Positions 5,312 to 53,487 of a DNA stretch of 60,422 bases are shown here, piece after piece. How positions within the stretch are numbered: the stretch's first letter is position 1; each line of letters begins with the position of its first letter. Both the position numbers and the translations under genes were made by a program. Origin of the DNA: Candidatus Omnitrophota bacterium (GTDB lineage Bacteria; Omnitrophota; Gorgyraeia; B26-G9); the NCBI GenBank assembly GCA_043814605.1, contig JBDRJV010000027.1, positions 1-60,422 of the forward strand. Direction: 5' to 3'. The notes below the pieces were generated by a model. That model was given only the letters and a program-made list of their open reading frames with translations. It ran no database searches and was not told the origin of the DNA.

Positions 5312-6460
5312 TTAGCCGCCAAATGCTTTTTTTAGTTTTTCAGAAATAGATCCGTTTTGAATATCTTCCCCTCTTAATTTTGCAAATTCTAATAATAATT
5401 TCTTTTCCCGTTCGGATAAATTAACCGGCACACTAACATGAACCTGCACAAATTGATCTCCTTTTTTATACCCGCGTAAATCTGTAAACCCTTTACCGTT
5501 AATTCGAAATACCTTTTCACTTTGCGTACCGGCGGGAATTTTCATTTTAATTTTTCCCTCGTATAAAGTAGGCACTTGAATTTCAGTGCCTAAAGCTGCT
5601 TGCACAAAACTGATTGATTTCTTGCAGTAAATATCATTACGATGCCTTTCGAAAATCTTATGTTTTTTCAGCCGAATTAATATATATAAATCACCGCGCG
5701 GGCCGTCTCGCGTTCCGGCTTCTCCTTCGCCGCGTACACGTAAATGCGAACCGGAATCAACTCCTGCGGGGACTTTAACATTTATTTTTCTTTGTACGCT
5801 CACCTTTCCTGTACCGCGGCAGCTTTTGCAAGGATTAGTAATAATTACTCCCTCACCGCGGCAGCTATCACAAGTCCGGGCAATGGTAAAAAACCCTGCG
5901 GATTGCCCAACTTGTCCGGATCCTTTACAGGCAGGACAAGTAATCTTTTTTGTTCCGGATTGAGCTCCTTCTCCATTACAGGCAGAACATACTTCTTTAC
6001 GGTTTATGGCAATACTTTTTTCTATACCCGCCGCTGCTTCTTCAAATTCAAGTGCCAATTCGTATTCTAAATCTGCGCCGCGCCGCGGACCGCCCCGTGA
6101 ACGTCTTGAACCTGAGAATCCAAATCCGGAAAAAATATCTTCAAAAATACCGCCGCCGCTAAAACCCATTTCCTCAAATATTGAACTAAAATCTGCACCG
6201 CGGAAAATATCTTCTTCACTGTATTGGTTATCAATTCCCGCATGGCCAAAACGATCATATTGCGCACGCTTATTCGTATCTGATAAAACCGCATAAGCCT
6301 CGGAAATTTCTTTAAATTTTTCTTCTGATTCTTTACGTTTATCTCCTGAGACACGGTCCGGATGATATTTCATCGCCAGTTTACGGTATGTTTTTTTGAT
6401 TTCATCAACGGAAGCATTTTTTTCAACACCCAGTATTTCATAATAATCCCGTTTTGTCAT
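5312..6460 (-). CDS. dnaJ: Molecular chaperone DnaJ
   Basis: J-domain (YYEILGV...HPD), G/F region and four CxxCxGxG zinc-finger repeats. The ATG at 6460 with an AGGA SD is preferred over the upstream GTG at 6484. Confidence 0.95.
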
Positions 6461-9059: not shown

Positions 9060-10127
9060 CTATTCTAAACTGTAGTTTTCTAAAATTGCACTTAAAATTC
9101 CGGAAACATAACTCACCGTAGCAATTGCCTTACCGTAATCCATTCGTTTGGGGCCGATTATTCCTAAAGTACCTAATATCTGTTTATTAATTTGATATCC
9201 CCCCATAACAATTGCACAGTCATCAAAAGCAATTTCCGGTGCTTCTTTACCGATGAAAACTTTAATTTTCTCCCCCGTTGTTTCTTGCCTATCAATAATC
9301 TCCTGAATCAATATTTCCCAGGAATCTCTTTCATCAAAAATTTTCATAAAGCTGCGGATCATCGCCGAATTTTCAAATTCAGGAAAATTCAAAATATTAC
9401 TAAACCCTTCCCAATAAAAATGTGTTTTTTCTTCTATTAAAGAACTGGAATCAACGAATTCAATTGCTTGCTTTAAAAGCATAAATAATGAGTTTCTTTC
9501 CTGAATCATCATCTTACGCAGTTTTGTCCTGATCCGATCTAAAGGCACATCTTCTAACTGATCATTCATGAAGTTTTCAATTCTTTTTAATTTATCTTTA
9601 TCAATTTTAAAGTTTTTTATATCAAAATTAACCACAGAACTTTTTGTCATGCCTGTACTAGTAACTAACATAACACAAACTTTATTATTATCCAGTAACA
9701 CAAATTGAATCCGTTTAAACTTACTTTTTTTTAACTGCGGCTGTGAAACAACCGCAGCATAATTGGTAAATTGTGAAAGAACGCGCGATGTCCTTCGGAC
9801 AATCTCATCCAACGCTAATTGTTTATCAATGTATTCGTTGCTGAGTACTGTTTTTTCCTGGGAAGTCAGCCCTGCAGTATCTAAAAGCTGATCCACATAA
9901 AAACGGTATCCTTTATCCGTAGGGACACGTCCAGCGGATGTGTGCAGATGTGTAATCAACCCTCTTTCTTCAAGGTCAGCCATAACATTTCGCACTGATG
10001 CTGCACATAAGTTCAAATGATATTGCGTACAGATTGTCCGTGAACTTACCGGATTACCAGTTGTTATGTAATTATTAATAATAATTCTTAGGATTTTATC
10101 TCTTCTGGCGTTAATATCAATTTTCAT
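9060..10127 (-). CDS. hrcA: Heat-inducible transcription repressor HrcA
   Basis: N-terminal winged helix (RRDKILRIIINNYITTGNPVSSRTI) and first gene of the hrcA-grpE-dnaK-dnaJ operon. I prefer the ATG at 10127. The track start (GTG at 10151) lies inside the CIRCE operator. Confidence 0.9.
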   Translation of the reverse strand: MKIDINARRDKILRIIINNYITTGNPVSSRTICTQYHLNLCAASVRNVMADLEERGLITHLHTSAGRVPTDKGYRFYVDQLLDTAGLTSQEKTVLSNEYIDKQLALDEIVRRTSRVLSQFTNYAAVVSQPQLKKSKFKRIQFVLLDNNKVCVMLVTSTGMTKSSVVNFDIKNFKIDKDKLKRIENFMNDQLEDVPLDRIRTKLRKMMIQERNSLFMLLKQAIEFVDSSSLIEEKTHFYWEGFSNILNFPEFENSAMIRSFMKIFDERDSWEILIQEIIDRQETTGEKIKVFIGKEAPEIAFDDCAIVMGGYQINKQILGTLGIIGPKRMDYGKAIATVSYVSGILSAILENYSLE

Positions 10128-25653: not shown

Positions 25654-25731
25654 TGGGGTGGATGATGGGATTCGAACCCACGGCATCAAGAACCACAATC
25701 TTGCGCTCTAACCAACTGAGCTACACCCACC
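25654..25731 (-). tRNA. tRNA-His (anticodon GTG)
   Basis: Cloverleaf folded by hand. It has the extra G-1 paired to C73, the anticodon loop TTGTGGT, the T-loop TTCGAAT and an encoded CCA. Confidence 0.95.
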
Positions 25732-25837
25732 ATAAAATTAGTTGTAAGTTTTAAGTAGTAAGCAAAAATAAATCCGCCTTTATTTCCAGTAGTAAAATTT
25801 ACTTCATTCTTAATACTTACCACTTATCACTAATTCG

Positions 25838-25914
<77 letters not shown>

Positions 25915-25943
25915 CCCCAAAATCTTTACCTTTGTTTAAGCGT

Positions 25944-26022
25944 TGGTCGGGGCAGGTGGATTTGAACCACCGACTTCTTGGTCCCAAACCAAGCGCTCTA
26001 AGCCAAGCTGAGCCATGCCCCG
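25944..26022 (-). tRNA. tRNA-Pro (anticodon TGG)
   Basis: Acceptor stem CGGGGCA/TGCCCCG, anticodon stem-loop CTTGG-TTTGGGA-CCAAG, T-loop TTCAAAT and an encoded CCA. Confidence 0.95.
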
Positions 26023-37143: not shown

Positions 37144-37842
37144 TTATTTTTTGTTCTTGATTTCAAAAGACAGGATAATTGCTTCCGCAATATCCTTCAT
37201 CGGCAGGCGTTTACTCATACTCGTTTTTCTTAATAAATTATATGCTTTTTCTTCACTGAGATTTTGTTCTTTCATCAAGATACCTTTTGCTTTTTCTACT
37301 TTTTTTCTCGCTTCTAATTCTTCCTGGATGACTTTAGTTTTCACAATCAACTCTGTATTTTCTATCGCCACTGCTGCCTGATTAGCAATCGTACTGACGA
37401 GGTCAATATCGCTTTTGCCAAATTTATATTCAGATGTTGTATAACAATTAATTACACCGATGACTTTATTTTTAACCATCATCGGAACGCTAAGCATAGA
37501 AACAAGGTTTTCTTTCTTAGCTAAAATTTTCTCTTTATATTTTTTATCTTTTTGGACATTTATAATTAAATTGGGTTTTTTTGTCATCGCCACTAAACCC
37601 ACAATTCCTTCCCCCACTTTTATACTTCTTTCCTTTAAATATTCGCTGCTCATCGCTTGAGTTGCTTTAATTTTAAGTTCCTGAGTTTTTTCATCCAGTA
37701 ACCATAGCGCACAAATTTTTGCTTTCATTACATTAGCAGTTAAAGTTACAATCAGTTTGAGCATATCTTCTAAATAAAGATCACTGGTGATCGCATTGCT
37801 GATTTTACTTAATGCGGCTATGTATTTTTTTTCTGATTTCAT
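37144..37842 (-). CDS. GAF-domain / ANTAR-domain RNA-binding antitermination regulator
   Basis: 232 aa with an N-terminal GAF domain and a C-terminal ANTAR helix bundle (ELEARKKVEKAKGILMKEQNLSEEKAYNLLRKTSMSKRLPMKDIAEAI). It lies 23 nt downstream of pyrG. Confidence 0.8.
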   Translation of the reverse strand: MKSEKKYIAALSKISNAITSDLYLEDMLKLIVTLTANVMKAKICALWLLDEKTQELKIKATQAMSSEYLKERSIKVGEGIVGLVAMTKKPNLIINVQKDKKYKEKILAKKENLVSMLSVPMMVKNKVIGVINCYTTSEYKFGKSDIDLVSTIANQAAVAIENTELIVKTKVIQEELEARKKVEKAKGILMKEQNLSEEKAYNLLRKTSMSKRLPMKDIAEAIILSFEIKNKK

Positions 37843-45727: not shown

Positions 45728-47408
<1,681 letters not shown>

Positions 47409-47490
47409 ATAATAAAATAAAAAAAGACATTTCCTCCTTGTTCAGGAAACGTCTTTGTTTCTTCCATATACAATACAAACATTGTATTGT
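47409..47490 (-). promoter_or_regulatory. ANTAR-type dual-hexaloop antiterminator overlapping an intrinsic terminator (gdhA leader)
   Basis: P1 is ACAAUAC[AAUGUU]GUAUUGU and P2 is GAAAC[AAAGAC]GUUUC. The 3' half of P2 forms the 5' arm of a 13-bp terminator stem that is followed by a U-tract. Confidence 0.65.
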
Positions 47491-47497
47491 GAAAATA

Positions 47498-47526
47498 AGC
47501 TTATCAAAATTCAAAAATATTGTCAA
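47498..47526 (-). promoter_or_regulatory. Candidate sigma70-type promoter of gdhA
   Basis: Minus strand reads TTGACA (47526-47521)-N17-TAAGCT (47503-47498). P1 begins 7 nt downstream. Confidence 0.5.
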
Positions 47527-47576
47527 TAAAAAAATCGCCTGATTTTTAAGCAAATTTTATTTTTAATTTATTATTA

Positions 47577-47684
47577 ATGGAACCCCCACGGGCTAAAGCC
47601 TGTGGTTCCTGGGGTGGAATACTCAAGCGGCCTCCTTTTATCCGCGCCATAAATGGGCGCGGTTTTAGGCCGCGGATGTATAAA
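47577..47684 (+). repeat. 108-nt GC-rich structured intergenic repeat, copy 2 of 3
   Basis: Identical to copy 1 except T at 47601 (C at 27937). Confidence 0.9.
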
Positions 47685-47719
47685 CCAATGCTTCAATATA
47701 AAGCAAAAAATTAAAATTA

Positions 47720-48928
47720 TTATATACTAGATTTTTTAACTCCCTGATTCCAGCGATCTTTAAGTTTAGGATTATCAATCCAGGATAACAAGTATTTTGT
47801 ATATTCCTCTCCGGTTACTCCGGTATCCCTGCCGGTAATTATCATCTTTTTTTCAAATTGCCCGCAGATATCTAAAGCCATTTCTACTTTTTCTGCTTGA
47901 TTATTAAATCCAATATGTCTAATCAGCATTGCACTGGCACGAATCATAGAACAGGGATCAGCAAATTTTGCCCGCCCTTCTTTAACCATACGCGGCGCAC
48001 TGCCATGAATTGCTTCAAACATTGCCCATTTTTTCCCGATGTTTGCACTGCCAGCTGTACCTACGCCGCCTTGCATTTGCGCGGCTTCATCCGTTAAAAT
48101 ATCGCCGTAAAGATTCGGCAGAACTAACACCTTAAATTCTTTGCGCCTAGCCGGATCAATTAACTTTGCACTCATAATATCAACATACCACTCATCCAGT
48201 TTAATTTTCGGATATTCCCGGGCAACACGAAAAGCAACCCGGGAAAACCGGCCGTCTGTAGTTTTTATAACATTTGATTTGGTAACTACGGTCACACGGT
48301 TAATATTATTCTTCTTTGCATATTCAAAGGCCATACGAATAATACGCTCTGAACCTTGCTCTGTTATGACTTTAAAGTCTATACTCAAATTTTCGGAAAC
48401 ATCAAATCCTCTGGAACCTAAAACATAAGCCCCTTCTGTATTCTCTCTAAAAAAACACCAATCAATGCTTTCTTGAGGAATTTTTATTGGCCGTATATTA
48501 GCAAAAAGATCCAAATGCCGGCGCATGGCTACATTGGCGCTTTCAATGTTTGGCCACTTATCCCCAGCTTGCGGTGTTGTTGTCGGGCCTTTAAGAATTA
48601 CATGGCATGATTTTATTTCTTCGAGCACATCATCGGGAATTGCCTTTTTATGTTTAACCCTGTTTTCAATTGTTAATCCCGTAATATCTTTAAATTTAAT
48701 TTTTCCTTGAGCTATCTGAGTTTTTAACATATGTTCTAAAACTACTTGCGCATGTTTGGAAATAATTTCACCGATCCCATCGCCCCAGCAAATACCGATA
48801 ATAATCGGCGATAAAGTTGTATAATCCGGGCTCTGGACATCTTTTTTCATTTCTTCAACGCGTGCTAACTGCTCTTGGATTATAATTTTAAATTTTTCCT
48901 GTGCATTTTTTATCATTTCTTGCGACAT
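47720..48928 (-). CDS. icd: Isocitrate/isopropylmalate dehydrogenase family enzyme (probable isocitrate dehydrogenase)
   Basis: The family motif NLYGDILTDEAAQMQGGVGTAGSANIG is present. The ATG at 48928 with an AGAGGT SD is preferred over the upstream GTG at 48958. Confidence 0.7.
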   Translation of the reverse strand: MSQEMIKNAQEKFKIIIQEQLARVEEMKKDVQSPDYTTLSPIIIGICWGDGIGEIISKHAQVVLEHMLKTQIAQGKIKFKDITGLTIENRVKHKKAIPDDVLEEIKSCHVILKGPTTTPQAGDKWPNIESANVAMRRHLDLFANIRPIKIPQESIDWCFFRENTEGAYVLGSRGFDVSENLSIDFKVITEQGSERIIRMAFEYAKKNNINRVTVVTKSNVIKTTDGRFSRVAFRVAREYPKIKLDEWYVDIMSAKLIDPARRKEFKVLVLPNLYGDILTDEAAQMQGGVGTAGSANIGKKWAMFEAIHGSAPRMVKEGRAKFADPCSMIRASAMLIRHIGFNNQAEKVEMALDICGQFEKKMIITGRDTGVTGEEYTKYLLSWIDNPKLKDRWNQGVKKSSI

Positions 48929-49027
48929 TTTTTTACCTCTAATATTTTTTAAAATCACCTTTTCTTTTTCTTTAGATCAGTTTTTCCTTTAATACATTAT
49001 ACCCTAAATTATTATTTTTATAAACCT

Positions 49028-50425
49028 CTACCATTTACCAGTTTTTAAATATTGATCTATTACACGTGCGGCAGTTTTTCCTGCTCCCATTGCCGAGATT
49101 ACTGTCGCTGCTCCGGTTGCAATATCTCCGCCGGCAAATACCCCTTTTTTACTGGTCTTTCCGGTTTCAGAATCAATTTCGATATTACCTTTTTTGCCAA
49201 TTTTAAGTCCCGGAGTTGTCTCCGGAACTAGAGGATTTGGGCTATTACCAATAGCTACCACAACCACGTCTACAGGGATTTTAAAATTAGAATCTTCAAT
49301 CGGGACAGGGCGTCTTCTGCCTGATGCATCGGGTTCTCCTAATTTCATTCTTAAGCACTCCATTTCCCTTACCCAGCCCTTTTTATCTGCGTAATAAGCT
49401 ATCGGCAAGGTTAAAAATTCAAATTGAACTCCTTCTTCTTCGGCATGATGGATTTCTTCATTACGTGCGGGCATTTCTGCTTTTGATCTTCTGTAGATAA
49501 CCATTGCTTTTTCTGCGCCTAAACGTAATGCTGTTCTCACTGAATCCATAGCTACATTCCCGCCGCCAATCACTGCCACGTTTTTGCCTTTTATTGTCGG
49601 CGTGTCATATGCCGGAAAACTGTATGCTTTCATTAAATTGCTTCTGGTTAAATATTCATTTGCGGAAAATATTCCGCTATAATTCTCTCCGGGTAAAGAC
49701 ATAAACCAGGGCAGACCTGCCCCAGTTCCGACAAAAATCGCATTAAATTCATTAAGAAGTTCATCGATAGTTTTTAATTTACCCACCACAAAATCAGTTA
49801 CAATTTCTACGCCTAAGGAGTGAATATATTCAACTTCTCTTTCTACAATCGAATTAGGCAGTCGAAATTCAGGGATCCCATAGACAAGTACCCCTCCCAT
49901 CTCATGTAATGCTTCAAATATCGTTACTGCATGTCCGAGTTTTACCAGTTCACCCGCAACGGTAAGCCCTGCCGGACCTCCACCCACACAAGCGACTTTT
50001 TTTCCGGTAGAAATTTTCTTAACTGGCCTGAAAATGTTATCCTGTTTAGCTTCCCAGTCAGCAATAAATCTTTCTAACCTTCCAATCGCTACGGGCTCTC
50101 CCATTTTAGAGAGAATACAAACTTTTTGGCATTGATCTTCCTGCGGACATACCCGGCCACATATAGCTGGAAGCACATTAGTTTCTTTCATCTTTTTTAT
50201 GGAAGCATGGAAATCTGCTTTAGCAATTAAATCTATAAATCCCGGAATATCTATACCCACAGGACAACCTTTAACACACAAAGGATTTTTACATTGTAAA
50301 CACCTTTTTGCTTCCAAAACCGCTTCTTCTTCAGAATATCCAAAAGGGACTTCCTTAAAATTTTTAATTCTTTCCCGGGGTATTTGTTCACGCATGGGTA
50401 TTTGAGTAGGATCTACTTTTGCCAT
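49028..50425 (-). CDS. nfnB: NfnB-like / GltD-like (homotetrameric-type NADPH glutamate synthase family) FAD and Fe-S oxidoreductase
   Basis: 465 aa with N-terminal cysteine clusters (CLQCKNPLCVKGCPV, CGRVCPQEDQC) and two Rossmann GxGxxG motifs. Confidence 0.7.
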   Translation of the reverse strand: MAKVDPTQIPMREQIPRERIKNFKEVPFGYSEEEAVLEAKRCLQCKNPLCVKGCPVGIDIPGFIDLIAKADFHASIKKMKETNVLPAICGRVCPQEDQCQKVCILSKMGEPVAIGRLERFIADWEAKQDNIFRPVKKISTGKKVACVGGGPAGLTVAGELVKLGHAVTIFEALHEMGGVLVYGIPEFRLPNSIVEREVEYIHSLGVEIVTDFVVGKLKTIDELLNEFNAIFVGTGAGLPWFMSLPGENYSGIFSANEYLTRSNLMKAYSFPAYDTPTIKGKNVAVIGGGNVAMDSVRTALRLGAEKAMVIYRRSKAEMPARNEEIHHAEEEGVQFEFLTLPIAYYADKKGWVREMECLRMKLGEPDASGRRRPVPIEDSNFKIPVDVVVVAIGNSPNPLVPETTPGLKIGKKGNIEIDSETGKTSKKGVFAGGDIATGAATVISAMGAGKTAARVIDQYLKTGKW

Positions 50426-50439
50426 GATTTATTAATTCC

Positions 50440-51276
50440 TTAATTTTTGTTCTTAATTTTTTCCTCAAGCTTACACAGAGAACGATTCTCATGCGGAATA
50501 AATCTCTTCTGTCTATCCATCAGCTCATTAAAATCAACTTGATGTCCATCAAAATCCGGTCCGTCAACACAAGTAAATTTAGTTTCTCCCCCGATTGTAA
50601 CCCGGCATCCGCCACACATTCCTATCCCATCGATCATAATAGAATTCAAACAAACCAATGTATATATATCAAATTGTTTAGTTAGATTAGAGACTGCACG
50701 CATCATAGGCAGAGGGCCGACACAAAAGACCAGGTTATAATTTGATTTTTTTTCAATTAATTTTTTCAACGGATCCGTTACTATTCCCTTTTGCCCGAGT
50801 GAACCATCATCAGTTGTTATGTATAAAGCATCTGAGTATTCATTTATTTGTTCTTTTAGTATTACTAGATCAGCGGTGCGGCCGCCTAAAATTGATGTGA
50901 TTGAACACCCGGCTTGTTTCAATGCCCGTACTACTGGCAGAAGCTCCGCAATGCCAACTCCCCCGCCGACAACAATTATATTCCCGTAATTTTTTATCGG
51001 TGTAGGTTTTCCTAAAGGCCCGACCAGAGAATATAAAGAATCGCCTACTGTTAACCCCGCCAATAATTTCGTAGTATATCCTACTTCCTGAAAAATAATA
51101 GTTATACACTTATTTTCTTTATCTGAGTCCACAATGGTCAGCGGAATACGCTCCCCTTCTTTATTCACCATTAGCATAATAAATTGTCCGGGCAAAGCTT
51201 TCTCCGCAATAAGCGGCGCTTCGATGATAAATTTAGTTAAATCCTTGGTAATTTTTTCTTTAGCTAAAATCTTCAT
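50440..51276 (-). CDS. nfnA: NfnA-like sulfide/dihydroorotate-dehydrogenase-type FAD/NAD-binding subunit with a C-terminal 2Fe-2S cluster
   Basis: 278 aa with a ferredoxin-reductase-type fold and a C-terminal cysteine motif (GMCGGCRV...FTCVDGP). It lies directly upstream of the nfnB-like gene. Confidence 0.7.
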   Translation of the reverse strand: MKILAKEKITKDLTKFIIEAPLIAEKALPGQFIMLMVNKEGERIPLTIVDSDKENKCITIIFQEVGYTTKLLAGLTVGDSLYSLVGPLGKPTPIKNYGNIIVVGGGVGIAELLPVVRALKQAGCSITSILGGRTADLVILKEQINEYSDALYITTDDGSLGQKGIVTDPLKKLIEKKSNYNLVFCVGPLPMMRAVSNLTKQFDIYTLVCLNSIMIDGIGMCGGCRVTIGGETKFTCVDGPDFDGHQVDFNELMDRQKRFIPHENRSLCKLEEKIKNKN

Positions 51277-51295: not shown

Positions 51296-51375
51296 GAAAC
51301 AAAAAAAAGACATTTTCCAGTTTTAAATTTAGGATAACGTCTTTGTTATTATTAAATTCAATATCATCATTGTAT
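51296..51375 (-). promoter_or_regulatory. ANTAR-type dual-hairpin antiterminator overlapping an intrinsic terminator (nfnAB leader)
   Basis: P1 is AUACAAU[GAUGAU]AUUGAAU and P2 is AUAAC[AAAGAC]GUUAU. The terminator AAAGACGUUAUCC/GGAAAAUGUCUUU plus U8 follows, and the SD and ATG lie about 30 nt downstream. Confidence 0.6.
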
Positions 51376-51384
51376 TAAAAATCA

Positions 51385-51413
51385 AGATTACCATGATCTA
51401 AAAAAAAAGTCAA
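51385..51413 (-). promoter_or_regulatory. Candidate sigma70-type promoter of the nfnAB operon
   Basis: Minus strand reads TTGACT (51413-51408)-N17-TAATCT (51390-51385). Confidence 0.55.
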
Positions 51414-53359: not shown

Positions 53360-53467
53360 TTTATACATCCGCGGCCTAAAACCGTGCCCATTTATGGCGC
53401 GGATAAAAGGAGGCCGCTTGAGTATTCCACCCCAGGAACCACGGGCTTTAGCCCGTGGGGGTTCCAT
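53360..53467 (-). repeat. 108-nt GC-rich structured intergenic repeat, copy 3 of 3 (inverted)
   Basis: It is the reverse complement of copy 1 except T at 53385. It ends 1 nt before the thiE ATG. Confidence 0.9.
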
Positions 53468-53487
53468 TAATTAAATTGGATTAAAAG

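Follow-up and report, generated by a model that had tools for sequence, protein, structure and literature searches.

A predicted ANTAR-type antitermination switch in the gdhA leader of a Candidatus Omnitrophota bacterium

The window analysed here, a contig stretch of 60,422 nucleotides from a Candidatus Omnitrophota bacterium, carries a glutamate dehydrogenase gene (gdhA) whose leader holds a promoter, two short hairpins and an intrinsic terminator. A second unit of this kind and a gene for a GAF-ANTAR protein are found in the same window. The features are as follows.

37144 to 37842, minus strand: gene for a GAF-ANTAR one-component regulator of 232 aa, candidate antiterminator (Pfam ANTAR 9e-20, GAF_2 3e-20)
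45728 to 47113, minus strand: gdhA, NADP-type glutamate dehydrogenase (Pfam ELFV_dehydrog 2e-93), the gene predicted to be controlled
47411 to 47456, minus strand: intrinsic terminator, 13-bp stem (47456-47444 / 47435-47423), 8-nt loop, U-tract 47422-47411
47446 to 47461, minus strand: hairpin P2, GAAAC[AAAGAC]GUUUC, predicted antiterminator, true hexaloop (47456-47451) with A1/G4 and a C-G closing pair
47462 to 47469, minus strand: linker between P1 and P2, 8 nt, AUAUGGAA, read from the sequence
47470 to 47490, minus strand: hairpin P1, ACAAUAC[AAUGUUU]GUAUUGU, 7-bp stem, 7-nt loop (47483-47477), C-G closing pair
47498 to 47526, minus strand: gdhA leader promoter read from the sequence, -35 TTGACA (47526-47521), 17-nt spacer, -10 TAAGCT (47503-47498)
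51298 to 51413, minus strand: second unit, upstream of an nfnA/sudB-like gene (50440-51276), recognised by pattern scan, covariance models and orthologous leaders
51385 to 51413, minus strand: promoter-like TTGACT (51413-51408), 17-nt spacer, TAATCT (51390-51385) of the second unit
51360 to 51376, minus strand: P1-like AAUAC[AAUGAU]G(A)UAUU of the second unit, with one bulge
51334 to 51349, minus strand: P2 of the second unit, AUAAC[AAAGAC]GUUAU; its terminator runs to 51306 and its U-tract to 51298

The TTGACA-N17-TAAGCT promoter of the original prediction lies on the minus strand exactly as given, and a TG at 47506-47505 adds an extended -10. A scan for consensus promoters did not list it, because its -10 hexamer matches the consensus at only 3/6 positions; TTGACA and TTTTGATAA are nevertheless invariant, with a variable spacer, in the orthologous leaders of three related loci (L162, L163 and L165). 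No sigma-54 GG-N10-GC element was seen on reading through the gdhA leader. The probable transcription start, about 47491-47490, coincides with the foot of P1.

The element had been placed upstream of gdhA at the start of its transcript. The gene does lie downstream, but its start codon, at 47113 (RBS AAAGGAGGG) or 47068 (database gene call, 446 aa), follows some 300-345 nt after the U-tract rather than directly; the ORF offers a further start at 47137. The ~300 nt between terminator and gene are structured and contain a weaker promoter-like duplicate, TTGAAA-18-TAAGCT, at 47292-47263, and some transcription of gdhA may therefore escape the switch. There are no terminator-like sites between 47411 and the gdhA start codon, so that read-through would necessarily enter gdhA. 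Exact-sequence look-ups of GdhA (with both start codons) and of the ANTAR protein returned no database record.

The hairpin P2, with a folding energy of -3.5 kcal/mol, agrees in sequence, position and A1/G4 hexaloop with the earlier description, as does the 8-nt gap that separates it from P1. For P1 itself the coordinates stand, as do A1 and G4 in its loop AAUGUUU, but the hexaloop form ACAAUAC[AAUGUU]GUAUUGU does not: since the stretch 47490-47470 is 21 nt long, the loop has 7 nt and cannot be folded with 6 in any register. The minimum-free-energy fold of P1 has 9 bp and a UGU triloop. The terminator proposed at 47456-47423 was likewise found as described, its arms AAAGACGUUUCCU/AGGAAAUGUCUUU forming 13 pairs (four G-C, one G.U) followed directly by UUUUAUUUUAUU, which is the arrangement of a rho-independent terminator, a G+C-containing stem-loop with a U-tract directly after it. 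It folds at -17 kcal/mol (z = -4.8), and none of 200 shuffles folds as well. Its 5' arm is made up of the P2 loop and the P2 3' arm; because 47456-47446 belongs to both folds, P2 and the terminator are mutually exclusive, as had been claimed.

ANTAR targets are defined by A1/G4 loops, conserved closing pairs and a P2 that overlaps the terminator, and their regulons centre on nitrogen genes (PMC3369931); the dual hexaloop is part of the published definition (PMC3369931, PMC8164766). The gdhA leader has the two short hairpins, of 7 bp (P1) and 5 bp (P2), both of which are kept in L162, L163 and L165, with A first and G fourth in each loop, and an intrinsic terminator takes in the 3' half of P2. 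Of the two terminal loops only that of P2 is a hexanucleotide, and the label "dual hexaloop" used in the original prediction is therefore not literally true of a P1 with a heptaloop. Linkers between P1 and P2 range over 5-12 nt in eut and 2-25 nt in an actinobacterial survey (PMC3369931, PMC8164766). The 8 nt found in the window fall within the survey range; in L162, L163 and L165 the orthologous linkers measure 3, 18 and 20 nt, and those of 18-20 nt are still inside the survey range but beyond the tolerance of EutV, which fails with a linker of 3 or 14 nt or one lengthened by 20 nt (PMC3369931, PMC8934654). A strict dual-hexaloop scan did not recover the P1 of the window and paired P2 instead with a G.U-rich hairpin, AGGAGGA[AAUGUC]UUUUUUU, consisting of the terminator 3' arm and U-tract; this candidate was rejected because the relatives do not share it.

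When the leader was compared by nucleotide BLAST with the first 160 related loci, these proved too distant to show any conservation, and a structure-based scan was therefore used. The pattern and covariance search for the same module, which had been suggested earlier, was run over the window and related loci and gave the second copy at ~51376-51298 as well as about 45 copies of a P2-plus-terminator unit, nnAC[ARNGRC]GUnn, in related Omnitrophota loci. The pattern scan and the covariance models turned up no further copy in the window, and the regions ahead of carA, pyrG and the ANTAR gene were likewise free of the unit. The family leaders precede gdhA, nfnAB/gltD-like genes, carA/B, pyrG, glnA, amtB, a glutamate-synthase-domain gene and a GAF-ANTAR gene, all of them assigned to nitrogen assimilation. 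In 0.71 Mb of Omnitrophota-type loci, 40 of the 50 matches to the core have an overlapping terminator, whereas none of the 23 core matches in the other loci (1.69 Mb) has one. Within the window the core ACARNGRCGT occurs twice against 0.45 expected; what decides against chance is the evidence from the family.

Conservation within this family follows the structure. In the P2 alignment (n=36), A7, A9, G12, G15 and T16 are invariant and A1/G4 are present in 36/36, while stem pairs 3 and 4 change from G-C to A-U in 10-15 of the 36 sequences, a covariation score that none of 500 shuffles reached. The hexaloop pairs into the terminator in 41 members, where the overlap of the two structures is itself accompanied by covariation, loop position 5 changing together with the terminator 3' arm (G-C in 22, A-U in 13, G.U in 4). 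A 22-nt covariance model trained on 33 members from other loci, with the window left out, ranked the two sites of the window first and second (18.3 and 16.3 bits; 60 kb, both strands), although the E-values from this short model alone are marginal (0.07 and 0.22). All five of its matches in unseen loci were sudB or gdhA leaders, and both window sites belong to the family in having overlapping terminators with nitrogen-metabolism genes downstream. Leaders orthologous to the second unit were found upstream of sudB in L163 (CUAUAC[AAUGGU]GUAUAG and AGGAC[AAAGAC]GUUCU) and in L165.

The nearest relatives (GdhA 85-88% identity) have retained all four elements in front of gdhA, namely promoter, P1 with its heptaloop, P2 and terminator; the terminator lies only ~35 nt from the gdhA RBS, and there is no second promoter. 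Their P1 hairpins read AGUAC[AAUGUAG]GUGCU (L162), AGUAC[AUUGUUU]GUGCU (L163) and AGUAC[AAUGUAG]GUACU (L165). P1 pairs 1-4 are formed, by several pair types, in 14/14 P1-bearing leaders, so that this stem covaries as well, and the loop is conserved at A1 (14/14), G4 (14/14), A2 (13/14) and U5 (11/14); its length is 7 nt in every orthologous gdhA leader and varies from 6 to 8 nt in the family as a whole. Many members lack P1 and have a single hexaloop hairpin, 3-20 nt after the presumed transcription start; no second hexaloop was found in these leaders, only tetraloop hairpins within their terminator loops. Tandem "first units" were observed in L089, L092 and L004.

The gene at 37144-37842 had been taken to encode an ANTAR protein, which its Pfam matches bear out while adding a GAF domain, and an ANTAR-domain protein is thus available in the same genome. 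It lies directly downstream of pyrG, 9.6 kb from the gdhA switch, and no motif precedes it. Its ANTAR domain matches EutV 6wsh at 1e-11, with the G4-stacking tyrosine kept, and NasR 4akk at 4e-07; its GAF domain is closest to those of PtsP/EI-Ntr and NifA-like Nlh1. Homologues adjoin gdhA or glnA in L003, L096, L110, L095, L092, L011, L005, L083, L091, L098 and L163. At least 12 loci have a GAF-ANTAR gene next to a motif-controlled gene, and in L003, L011 and L092 the motif precedes the GAF-ANTAR gene itself; many motif-bearing loci have no ANTAR gene within 10 kb. No GAF-ANTAR protein had been characterised according to PMC3369931, only NasR and PAL are named as one-component ANTAR proteins (PMC7496416), and the literature searched assigns no RNA target or regulon to any GAF-ANTAR protein.

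Other classes of leader were also considered. At gathering thresholds an Rfam 15 scan of the whole window gave three tRNAs only, nothing relevant to the leader, and a permissive scan of 47000-47800 gave ctRNA_pT181 as its best match on the leader (29 bits, threshold 56). There was no match to Rfam riboswitch, leader or PyrR binding-site families at the gdhA leader, and a PyrR site was rejected on that ground; a CsrA site was rejected as most P2 loops have no GGA. A leader peptide beginning at AAGGAGGAAAUG in the terminator loop (23-codon ORF) was set aside, the RBS spacing being only 2 nt and the ORF absent from the orthologues.

The family, the covariation, the orthologous leaders and the position of an ANTAR gene in a nitrogen-metabolism cluster support the antitermination interpretation of the original prediction, and the gdhA leader is quite probably a protein-dependent ANTAR-type transcription attenuator that gates gdhA expression, with the GAF-ANTAR protein encoded at 37144-37842 as its most likely operator. 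A transcript begun at the sigma-70-type promoter (47526-47498) would fold its first 21 nt into P1, and P2 would form 8 nt later. Unless P2 were held, the far more stable terminator (-17 kcal/mol, compared with -3.5) would capture its loop and 3' arm, and transcription would stop in the U-tract at about 47420-47411, giving a leader RNA of ~75-80 nt and a default OFF state. A ligand of the GAF domain is expected to activate the protein, whose dimeric ANTAR domain would bind the A1/G4 loops of P1 and then of P2, the order proposed for EutV. The bound protein would stabilise P2 and block the terminator, and RNA polymerase would read into gdhA. A switch of the same kind is predicted at ~51376-51298, ahead of the nfnAB/gltD-like-icd operon, and the Omnitrophota leaders on glnA, amtB, carAB, pyrG, the glutamate-synthase-domain gene and the regulator gene suggest that both form one arm of a nitrogen-assimilation regulon.

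The switch might be real and yet be run by a different factor, whether an ANTAR protein encoded elsewhere in the genome or an unrelated RNA-binding protein, with the GAF-ANTAR gene merely co-regulated. The 9.6 kb between gene and switch, the 60 kb of genome examined, the many motif loci without an ANTAR gene within 10 kb, and P1 loops of 7-8 nt and single-hairpin leaders that depart from the canonical ANTAR target would all accommodate such a factor. It is nonetheless unlikely, given that A1, G4 and the C-G closing pair are the ANTAR signature (PMC3369931), that GAF-ANTAR genes adjoin motif-controlled ones at 12 or more loci, with the motif in front of the GAF-ANTAR gene itself in three, and that neither the CsrA GGA (missing from most P2 loops) nor PyrR or any other Rfam family offers a candidate. 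A rather more improbable reading is that the unit serves mainly as a stand-alone small RNA of ~75-80 nt, for example a decoy titrating the ANTAR protein, while gdhA is transcribed from the promoter-like site at 47292-47263. EutX/Rli55 is a decoy RNA of this sort, titrating EutV. The ~300 nt with a duplicated promoter block in front of gdhA, the tandem units of L089, L092 and L004, and a weak generic likeness to two-hairpin sRNAs (the ctRNA_pT181 match below threshold) are in keeping with it; the downstream promoter copy, however, has neither TTGACA nor the TG extension, no terminator separates the unit from gdhA, and the nearest relatives have no second promoter and only ~35 nt between the unit and the gdhA RBS.

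Two further readings are very improbable. The repeat GAAAC...GUUUC lies ~30-45 bp from the presumed transcription start, a typical operator position, and could be a site in the DNA at which a dimeric transcription factor acts just past the promoter, the terminator being incidental. The half-sites nonetheless covary (GGAC/GUCC, AAAC/GUUU, AGAC/GUCU) around a conserved asymmetric loop, and in every case the element lies on the sense strand and overlaps a terminator; changes in its loop are matched by changes in the terminator 3' arm. There is similarly scant likelihood that the unit is the ordinary terminator of icd with chance hairpins, or a metabolite-binding riboswitch. The icd stop codon does lie on the same strand, 265 nt ahead of the gdhA-leader terminator, but the unit has its own conserved promoter, precedes gdhA whatever lies upstream (icd, gltD-like or ANTAR), and also precedes sudB, carA, pyrG, glnA and amtB, while a 5-bp hexaloop hairpin offers no ligand pocket and has no Rfam match.

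Under the preferred reading, ANTAR-dependent attenuation, the gdhA locus and the ~45 related leaders provide a concrete candidate regulon for the GAF-ANTAR class, in a phylum without cultured members whose regulation is inferable from sequence alone. It is possible, though tentative, that a GAF-ANTAR antiterminator runs a core nitrogen-assimilation regulon in Omnitrophota (amtB, glnA, gdhA, glutamate-synthase-type, nfnAB/gltD-like, carAB and pyrG) whose targets break the dual-hexaloop rule, either as single-hairpin leaders or through a conserved 7-8-nt P1 loop, C[AAnGUUn]G, and that the GAF domain senses nitrogen status directly, for example as 2-oxoglutarate or glutamine. The minimal ANTAR binding unit is a single hexaloop, in which G4 stacks on a Tyr, whereas the EutV model requires P1 and expects single sites to work only away from a transcribing polymerase (PMC8934654). 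If the single-hairpin leaders are functional, one hexaloop would suffice for co-transcriptional antitermination, which goes beyond that model. Two-hexaloop searches miss heptaloop P1s and single-hairpin leaders, and ANTAR regulons have probably been under-counted.

Among known systems, EutV/EutW of Enterococcus faecalis eut shares the two short A1/G4 hairpins, the conserved closing pairs, the inclusion of the P2 3' half in a terminator, termination as the default state and the ANTAR domain (1e-11, G4-stacking Tyr kept). It differs in that the P1 loop here has 7 nt, P1 is often absent in the family and orthologue linkers span 3-20 nt, and in being a phosphorylated response regulator of ethanolamine use rather than a one-component GAF-ANTAR protein of nitrogen assimilation. 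NasR (NIT-ANTAR) and the nasF leader of Klebsiella oxytoca resemble the present system in the one-component design with a ligand-sensing N-terminal domain, the two A1/G4 hexaloop hairpins and the nitrogen-assimilation role (PMC7496416, PMC12591593), but NasR has a NIT sensor and a single nitrate operon, compared with a GAF sensor and a broader predicted regulon (gdhA, glnA, amtB, carAB, pyrG and nfnAB/gltD-like). The ANTAR regulons predicted in Desulfotomaculum and Pelobacter, also by computation only, have several leaders per genome and related nitrogen operons including glutamate synthase (PMC3369931); they were found in Firmicutes and Deltaproteobacteria by a strict model of two hexaloops, which the Omnitrophota heptaloop P1 and single-hairpin leaders would escape.

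In the GnfK/GnfR system of Geobacter sulfurreducens, the nifH, glnK and amtB leaders carry a terminator-overlapping CAGGCAANGGCGCC, that is GGC[AANGGC]GCC, bound by the ANTAR protein (PMC2995071). The GnfR hexaloop AANGGC is nearly identical to the Omnitrophota P2 loops AAAGGC/AAGGGC/AAAGAC, and both nitrogen regulons include amtB, although GnfR is a kinase-activated REC-ANTAR protein (PMC2995071). Geobacter gdhA has a sigma-54 promoter under GnfM and no antitermination, whereas in Omnitrophota gdhA is a predicted target with sigma-70-like promoters, which would place glutamate dehydrogenase under antitermination control instead of promoter-level regulation. ANTAR antitermination of nitrogen genes is already known, and the Omnitrophota switch extends this established theme; its novelty likely lies in a P1 loop of 7-8 nt or the absence of P1, and in a regulator from the GAF-ANTAR class.

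The leader of the glutamate dehydrogenase gene gdhA contains the elements below; P1 and P2 are its 5' and 3' hairpins, loops stand in square brackets, and A1 and G4 are A and G at loop positions 1 and 4.

47526-47521, minus strand: -35 element TTGACA of the promoter
47503-47498, minus strand: -10 element TAAGCT after a 17-nt spacer, with TG at 47506-47505
47490-47470, minus strand: P1, ACAAUAC-AAUGUUU-GUAUUGU, 21 nt, with both A1 and G4
between P1 and P2, minus strand: 8-nt linker
47461-47446, minus strand: P2, GAAAC[AAAGAC]GUUUC, a true A1/G4 hexaloop, -3.5 kcal/mol
47456-47423, minus strand: terminator AAAGACGUUUCCU/AGGAAAUGUCUUU, stem of 13 pairs (one of them G.U), 8-nt loop, then UUUUAUUUUAUU

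The promoter, linker, P2 and terminator of the original prediction were all confirmed in the sequence, P2 and the terminator also by folding. The terminator was recovered by a terminator scan as well, is the dominant structure when the entire leader is folded, and reaches -17 kcal/mol (z = -4.8; 0/200 shuffles equally stable); since it has 47456-47446 in common with P2, the two folds are mutually exclusive, as had been proposed. P1 stood in part: its coordinates, A1 and G4 hold, but with 21 nt its loop has 7 nt, not the 6 miscounted earlier. A P1 hexaloop is obtainable in no register, and in the ViennaRNA fold the stem grows to 9 bp, leaving a UGU triloop.

The predicted placement upstream of gdhA, identified by Pfam, also holds. 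Its likely starts, 47113 (RBS AAAGGAGGG) and 47068 (database gene call, 446 aa) on the minus strand, lie about 300-345 nt past the U-tract, and the terminator scan found no further terminator-like site between the leader terminator and the gdhA start. The start is ambiguous, as the ORF opens at 47137 and GdhA homologues of both lengths are known. GdhA has its best matches in Candidatus Omnitrophota, and the gene belongs to a nitrogen and carbon-skeleton module encoded entirely on the minus strand. A three-tRNA gene cluster lies at 25657-26022 (minus; Rfam tRNA, 64-68 bits).

50440-51276, minus strand: nfnA/sudB-like gene
49028-50425, minus strand: nfnB/gltD-like gene
47720-48958, minus strand: isocitrate/isopropylmalate-type dehydrogenase gene (icd)
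minus strand, other module genes: gdhA, carA, carB; class-II amidotransferase gene, pyrG; GAF-ANTAR gene

Nucleotide search matched the gdhA leader in none of the first 160 related loci (handles with L) and Rfam gave no match for it, so the scan targeted the structure itself: a hairpin with an A..G.. hexaloop, its loop and 3' arm doubling as the start of a terminator. In Omnitrophota-type loci a recurrent motif, nnAC[ARNGRC]GUnn fused to a terminator, was found, usually behind a TTGACA-N17-TAnnnT promoter. It precedes gdhA (L004, L012, L082, L087, L088, L094, L096), the sudB/gltD-like operon (12 loci), carA or carB, pyrG, the GAF-ANTAR gene itself (L003, L011, L092), glnA (L098), amtB (L095) and a glutamate-synthase-domain gene (L004). 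The core ACARNGRCGT overlapped a terminator in 40 of 50 matches in 0.71 Mb of Omnitrophota-type loci and in none of 23 in 1.69 Mb of other loci, which served as control.

A pattern search like the one that the original prediction had called for across the genome, run here on the window and related loci, revealed this family and a second window copy; the core occurs twice in the window, against 0.45 expected.

51349-51334: second P2, AUAAC[AAAGAC]GUUAU, upstream of the sudB-like gene, with a terminator to 51306

This sudB leader also has a P1-like hairpin, AAUAC[AAUGAU]G(A)UAUU, with one bulge. A P2 covariance model trained on 33 sequences from outside the window gave these two sites its two best scores over the 60 kb, both strands included (18.3 and 16.3 bits; next best 13.5), with E-values of 0.07 and 0.22 that are marginal because the model is just 22 nt long. 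In the unseen loci L162, L163 and L165 all five matches were sudB and gdhA leaders. Neither the pattern scan nor the covariance search found a third window copy.

When 36 P2 hairpins were aligned without gaps, A1, G4 and both inner pairs showed little or no variation. Pairs 3 and 4 alternate between G-C and A-U, in 10 and 15 sequences respectively, and leave 0-2 cells unpaired. The covariation score was reached by 0/500 shuffles, and slid registers all scored far lower. The hexaloop pairs into the terminator in 41 instances, and there the fifth loop nucleotide and its partner in the 3' arm of the terminator covary (G-C 22, A-U 13, G.U 4). Across the family P2 alone reaches 0 to -6.5 kcal/mol, whereas the segment from P2 through the terminator reaches -12 to -56 kcal/mol. 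Termination should therefore be the default, and it would take a trans-acting factor to keep P2 in place.

Nearer relatives (GdhA 85-88% identical) were obtained from a large-database search and their contigs compared. The window's gene order is common to L162, L163/L164 and L165-L167, and pyrG-GAF-ANTAR ends it in L163. Column identity between the window's gdhA leader and theirs is 82% over promoter, P1, P2 and terminator, with compensatory changes in all three hairpins and the terminator just about 35 nt from the gdhA RBS. P2 is GGAAC[AAAGGC]GUUCC, and P1 is AGUAC[AAUGUAG]GUGCU or GUACU, or AGUAC[AUUGUUU]GUGCU; their sudB leaders have a hexaloop P1, such as CUAUAC[AAUGGU]GUAUAG in L163. In many family members the -10 hexamer lies just 5-25 nt upstream of P2, leaving no room for P1, while a P1-bearing subset (L003, L004, L089, L092, L011) has a C-G-closed loop of 7-8 nt, C[AAnGUUn]G. 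Among 14 P1-bearing leaders, stem pairs 1-4 form in every one, with several pair types, and A1 and G4 occur in 14/14, A2 in 13/14 and U5 in 11/14. Because stem pairs, A1 and G4 are kept across these leaders, P1 is real and conserved in the window's clade, yet a heptaloop.

Other layouts were also seen. Tandem attenuators, a full promoter-P1-P2-terminator followed by a second P1-P2-terminator, occur at L089 11440-11640, L092 11390-11600 and L004 11400-11545, before pyrG, the GAF-ANTAR gene or a glutamate-synthase-domain gene. Divergent P2 hairpins upstream of sudB are GGC[AAAGGG]GUC (L081 ~5740-5800) and GAC[GAAGAC]GUC (L017 ~290-340), the latter with G at loop position 1. In L081 gdhA has almost no spacer after icd and no leader of its own; in L092 its leader (~9750-9945) is a different, GC-rich structure that spans about 190 nt and lacks the ANTAR-type motif, and may be another kind of regulatory RNA. 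UUAGGCAAA is conserved 10-25 nt 5' of the sudB-like start in L006, L007, L015, L081, L083, L086 and L091, where a Shine-Dalgarno would be expected and none is obvious.

The protein of 37144-37842, the predicted ANTAR regulator, proved to be a GAF-ANTAR protein (Pfam ANTAR 9e-20, GAF_2 3e-20). Its GAF domain is nearest to 3e0y, the GAF of PtsP/EI-Ntr (3ci6, 3trc) and NifA-like Nlh1, families that hint, speculatively, at a nitrogen-status ligand. The ANTAR domain matches RNA-bound EutV (6wsh, 1e-11), Rv1626, NasR and AmiR. In EutV a tyrosine stacks on G4 (PMC8934654); its segment EEAYQMLR aligns with EKAYNLLR here, whose tyrosine would correspond to EutV Tyr164. Homologues located by tblastn with the window's proteins lie directly upstream of gdhA (L003, L096, L110), directly downstream of it (L095, L092, L011), upstream of sudB (L005, L083, L091), right after glnA (L083, L091, L098) or a few kb off (L089, L098, L001, L163). 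Between the ANTAR gene and gdhA, L110 carries a textbook dual AAAGAU/AAAGAU hexaloop with terminator, and the L098 glnA leader is a canonical dual hexaloop too.

The icd-gdhA spacer measures 606 nt in the window against ~140-455 nt in relatives.

47684-47577, minus strand: 108-nt GC-rich repeat within the spacer
28020-27913, minus strand: further copy
53360-53471, plus strand: further copy
47407-47352, minus strand: GC-rich hairpins with CCUAAAAACAG, right after the leader terminator
47304-47262, minus strand: partial direct duplicate of promoter block 47553-47497, TTGCTTAAA...TAAGCTT
47261-47187, minus strand: three nested CCCGAAGAA / UUCUUCGGG inverted repeats, alternative hairpins being possible
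47168-47136, minus strand: 15-bp hairpin with CAUUUAAAGGAG, just 5' of the gdhA RBS

The repeat (TTTATACATCCGCGG...GGGGGTTCCAT) has three copies of 98-99% identity with sharp ends, all wholly or mostly intergenic, in a window of 35% G+C; it folds into two strong hairpins and had no Rfam match, and it may represent a MITE/REP-like element or a family of small RNA genes. A sequence similar to that of the post-terminator hairpins, GCGCCUAAAAACAGGC, lies 3' of the gdhA leader terminator in L096 (~9960-9985) and L082 (~9975-10000), and these hairpins may be a second conserved leader element. The promoter duplicate, TTGAAA-18-TAAGCT without TTGACA or TG extension, may be a weak second gdhA promoter bypassing the attenuator. 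The 313-nt terminator-to-gdhA segment folds far better than shuffles (z = -4.1). Region 47194-47119 (minus) is 78% identical over 76 nt to L006 902-974, which precedes an unrelated gene (288-aa product, then hydrogenase-like ORFs), and looks like a shared 5'-UTR element. Given these oddities, part of gdhA transcription may start downstream of the switch.

The original reading as ANTAR-type antitermination is supported. Transcription would most likely start at ~47490, with P1 folding first at the 5' end and P2 next. Without protein the terminator would prevail, releasing a leader of ~75-80 nt; with active GAF-ANTAR protein P2 would be held, no terminator would form and transcription would run into gdhA. 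Rival explanations are that another factor binds the leader, or that the unit acts as a stand-alone decoy sRNA. The P2 repeat might instead be a DNA operator, and the unit a plain icd terminator or a riboswitch, but all three fit poorly with the covariation, the strand specificity and the leaders of orthologous genes.

The proposed gdhA switch fits the ANTAR model (PMC3369931, PMC8934654), although the leader, tested for the defining pair of hexaloops, has only one. The nearest site in sequence is that of Geobacter GnfR, GGC[AANGGC]GCC, and Geobacter gdhA itself is under different regulation (PMC2995071). Nitrogen genes are already established targets of ANTAR antitermination, and a 2012 study predicted ANTAR regulons covering glutamate synthase genes (PMC3369931). 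What would be new, judging from sequence, is the phylum, gdhA as a target, a regulon assigned to the uncharacterised GAF-ANTAR class, and target RNAs whose P1 has a loop of 7-8 nt or is missing, outside the dual-hexaloop definition.
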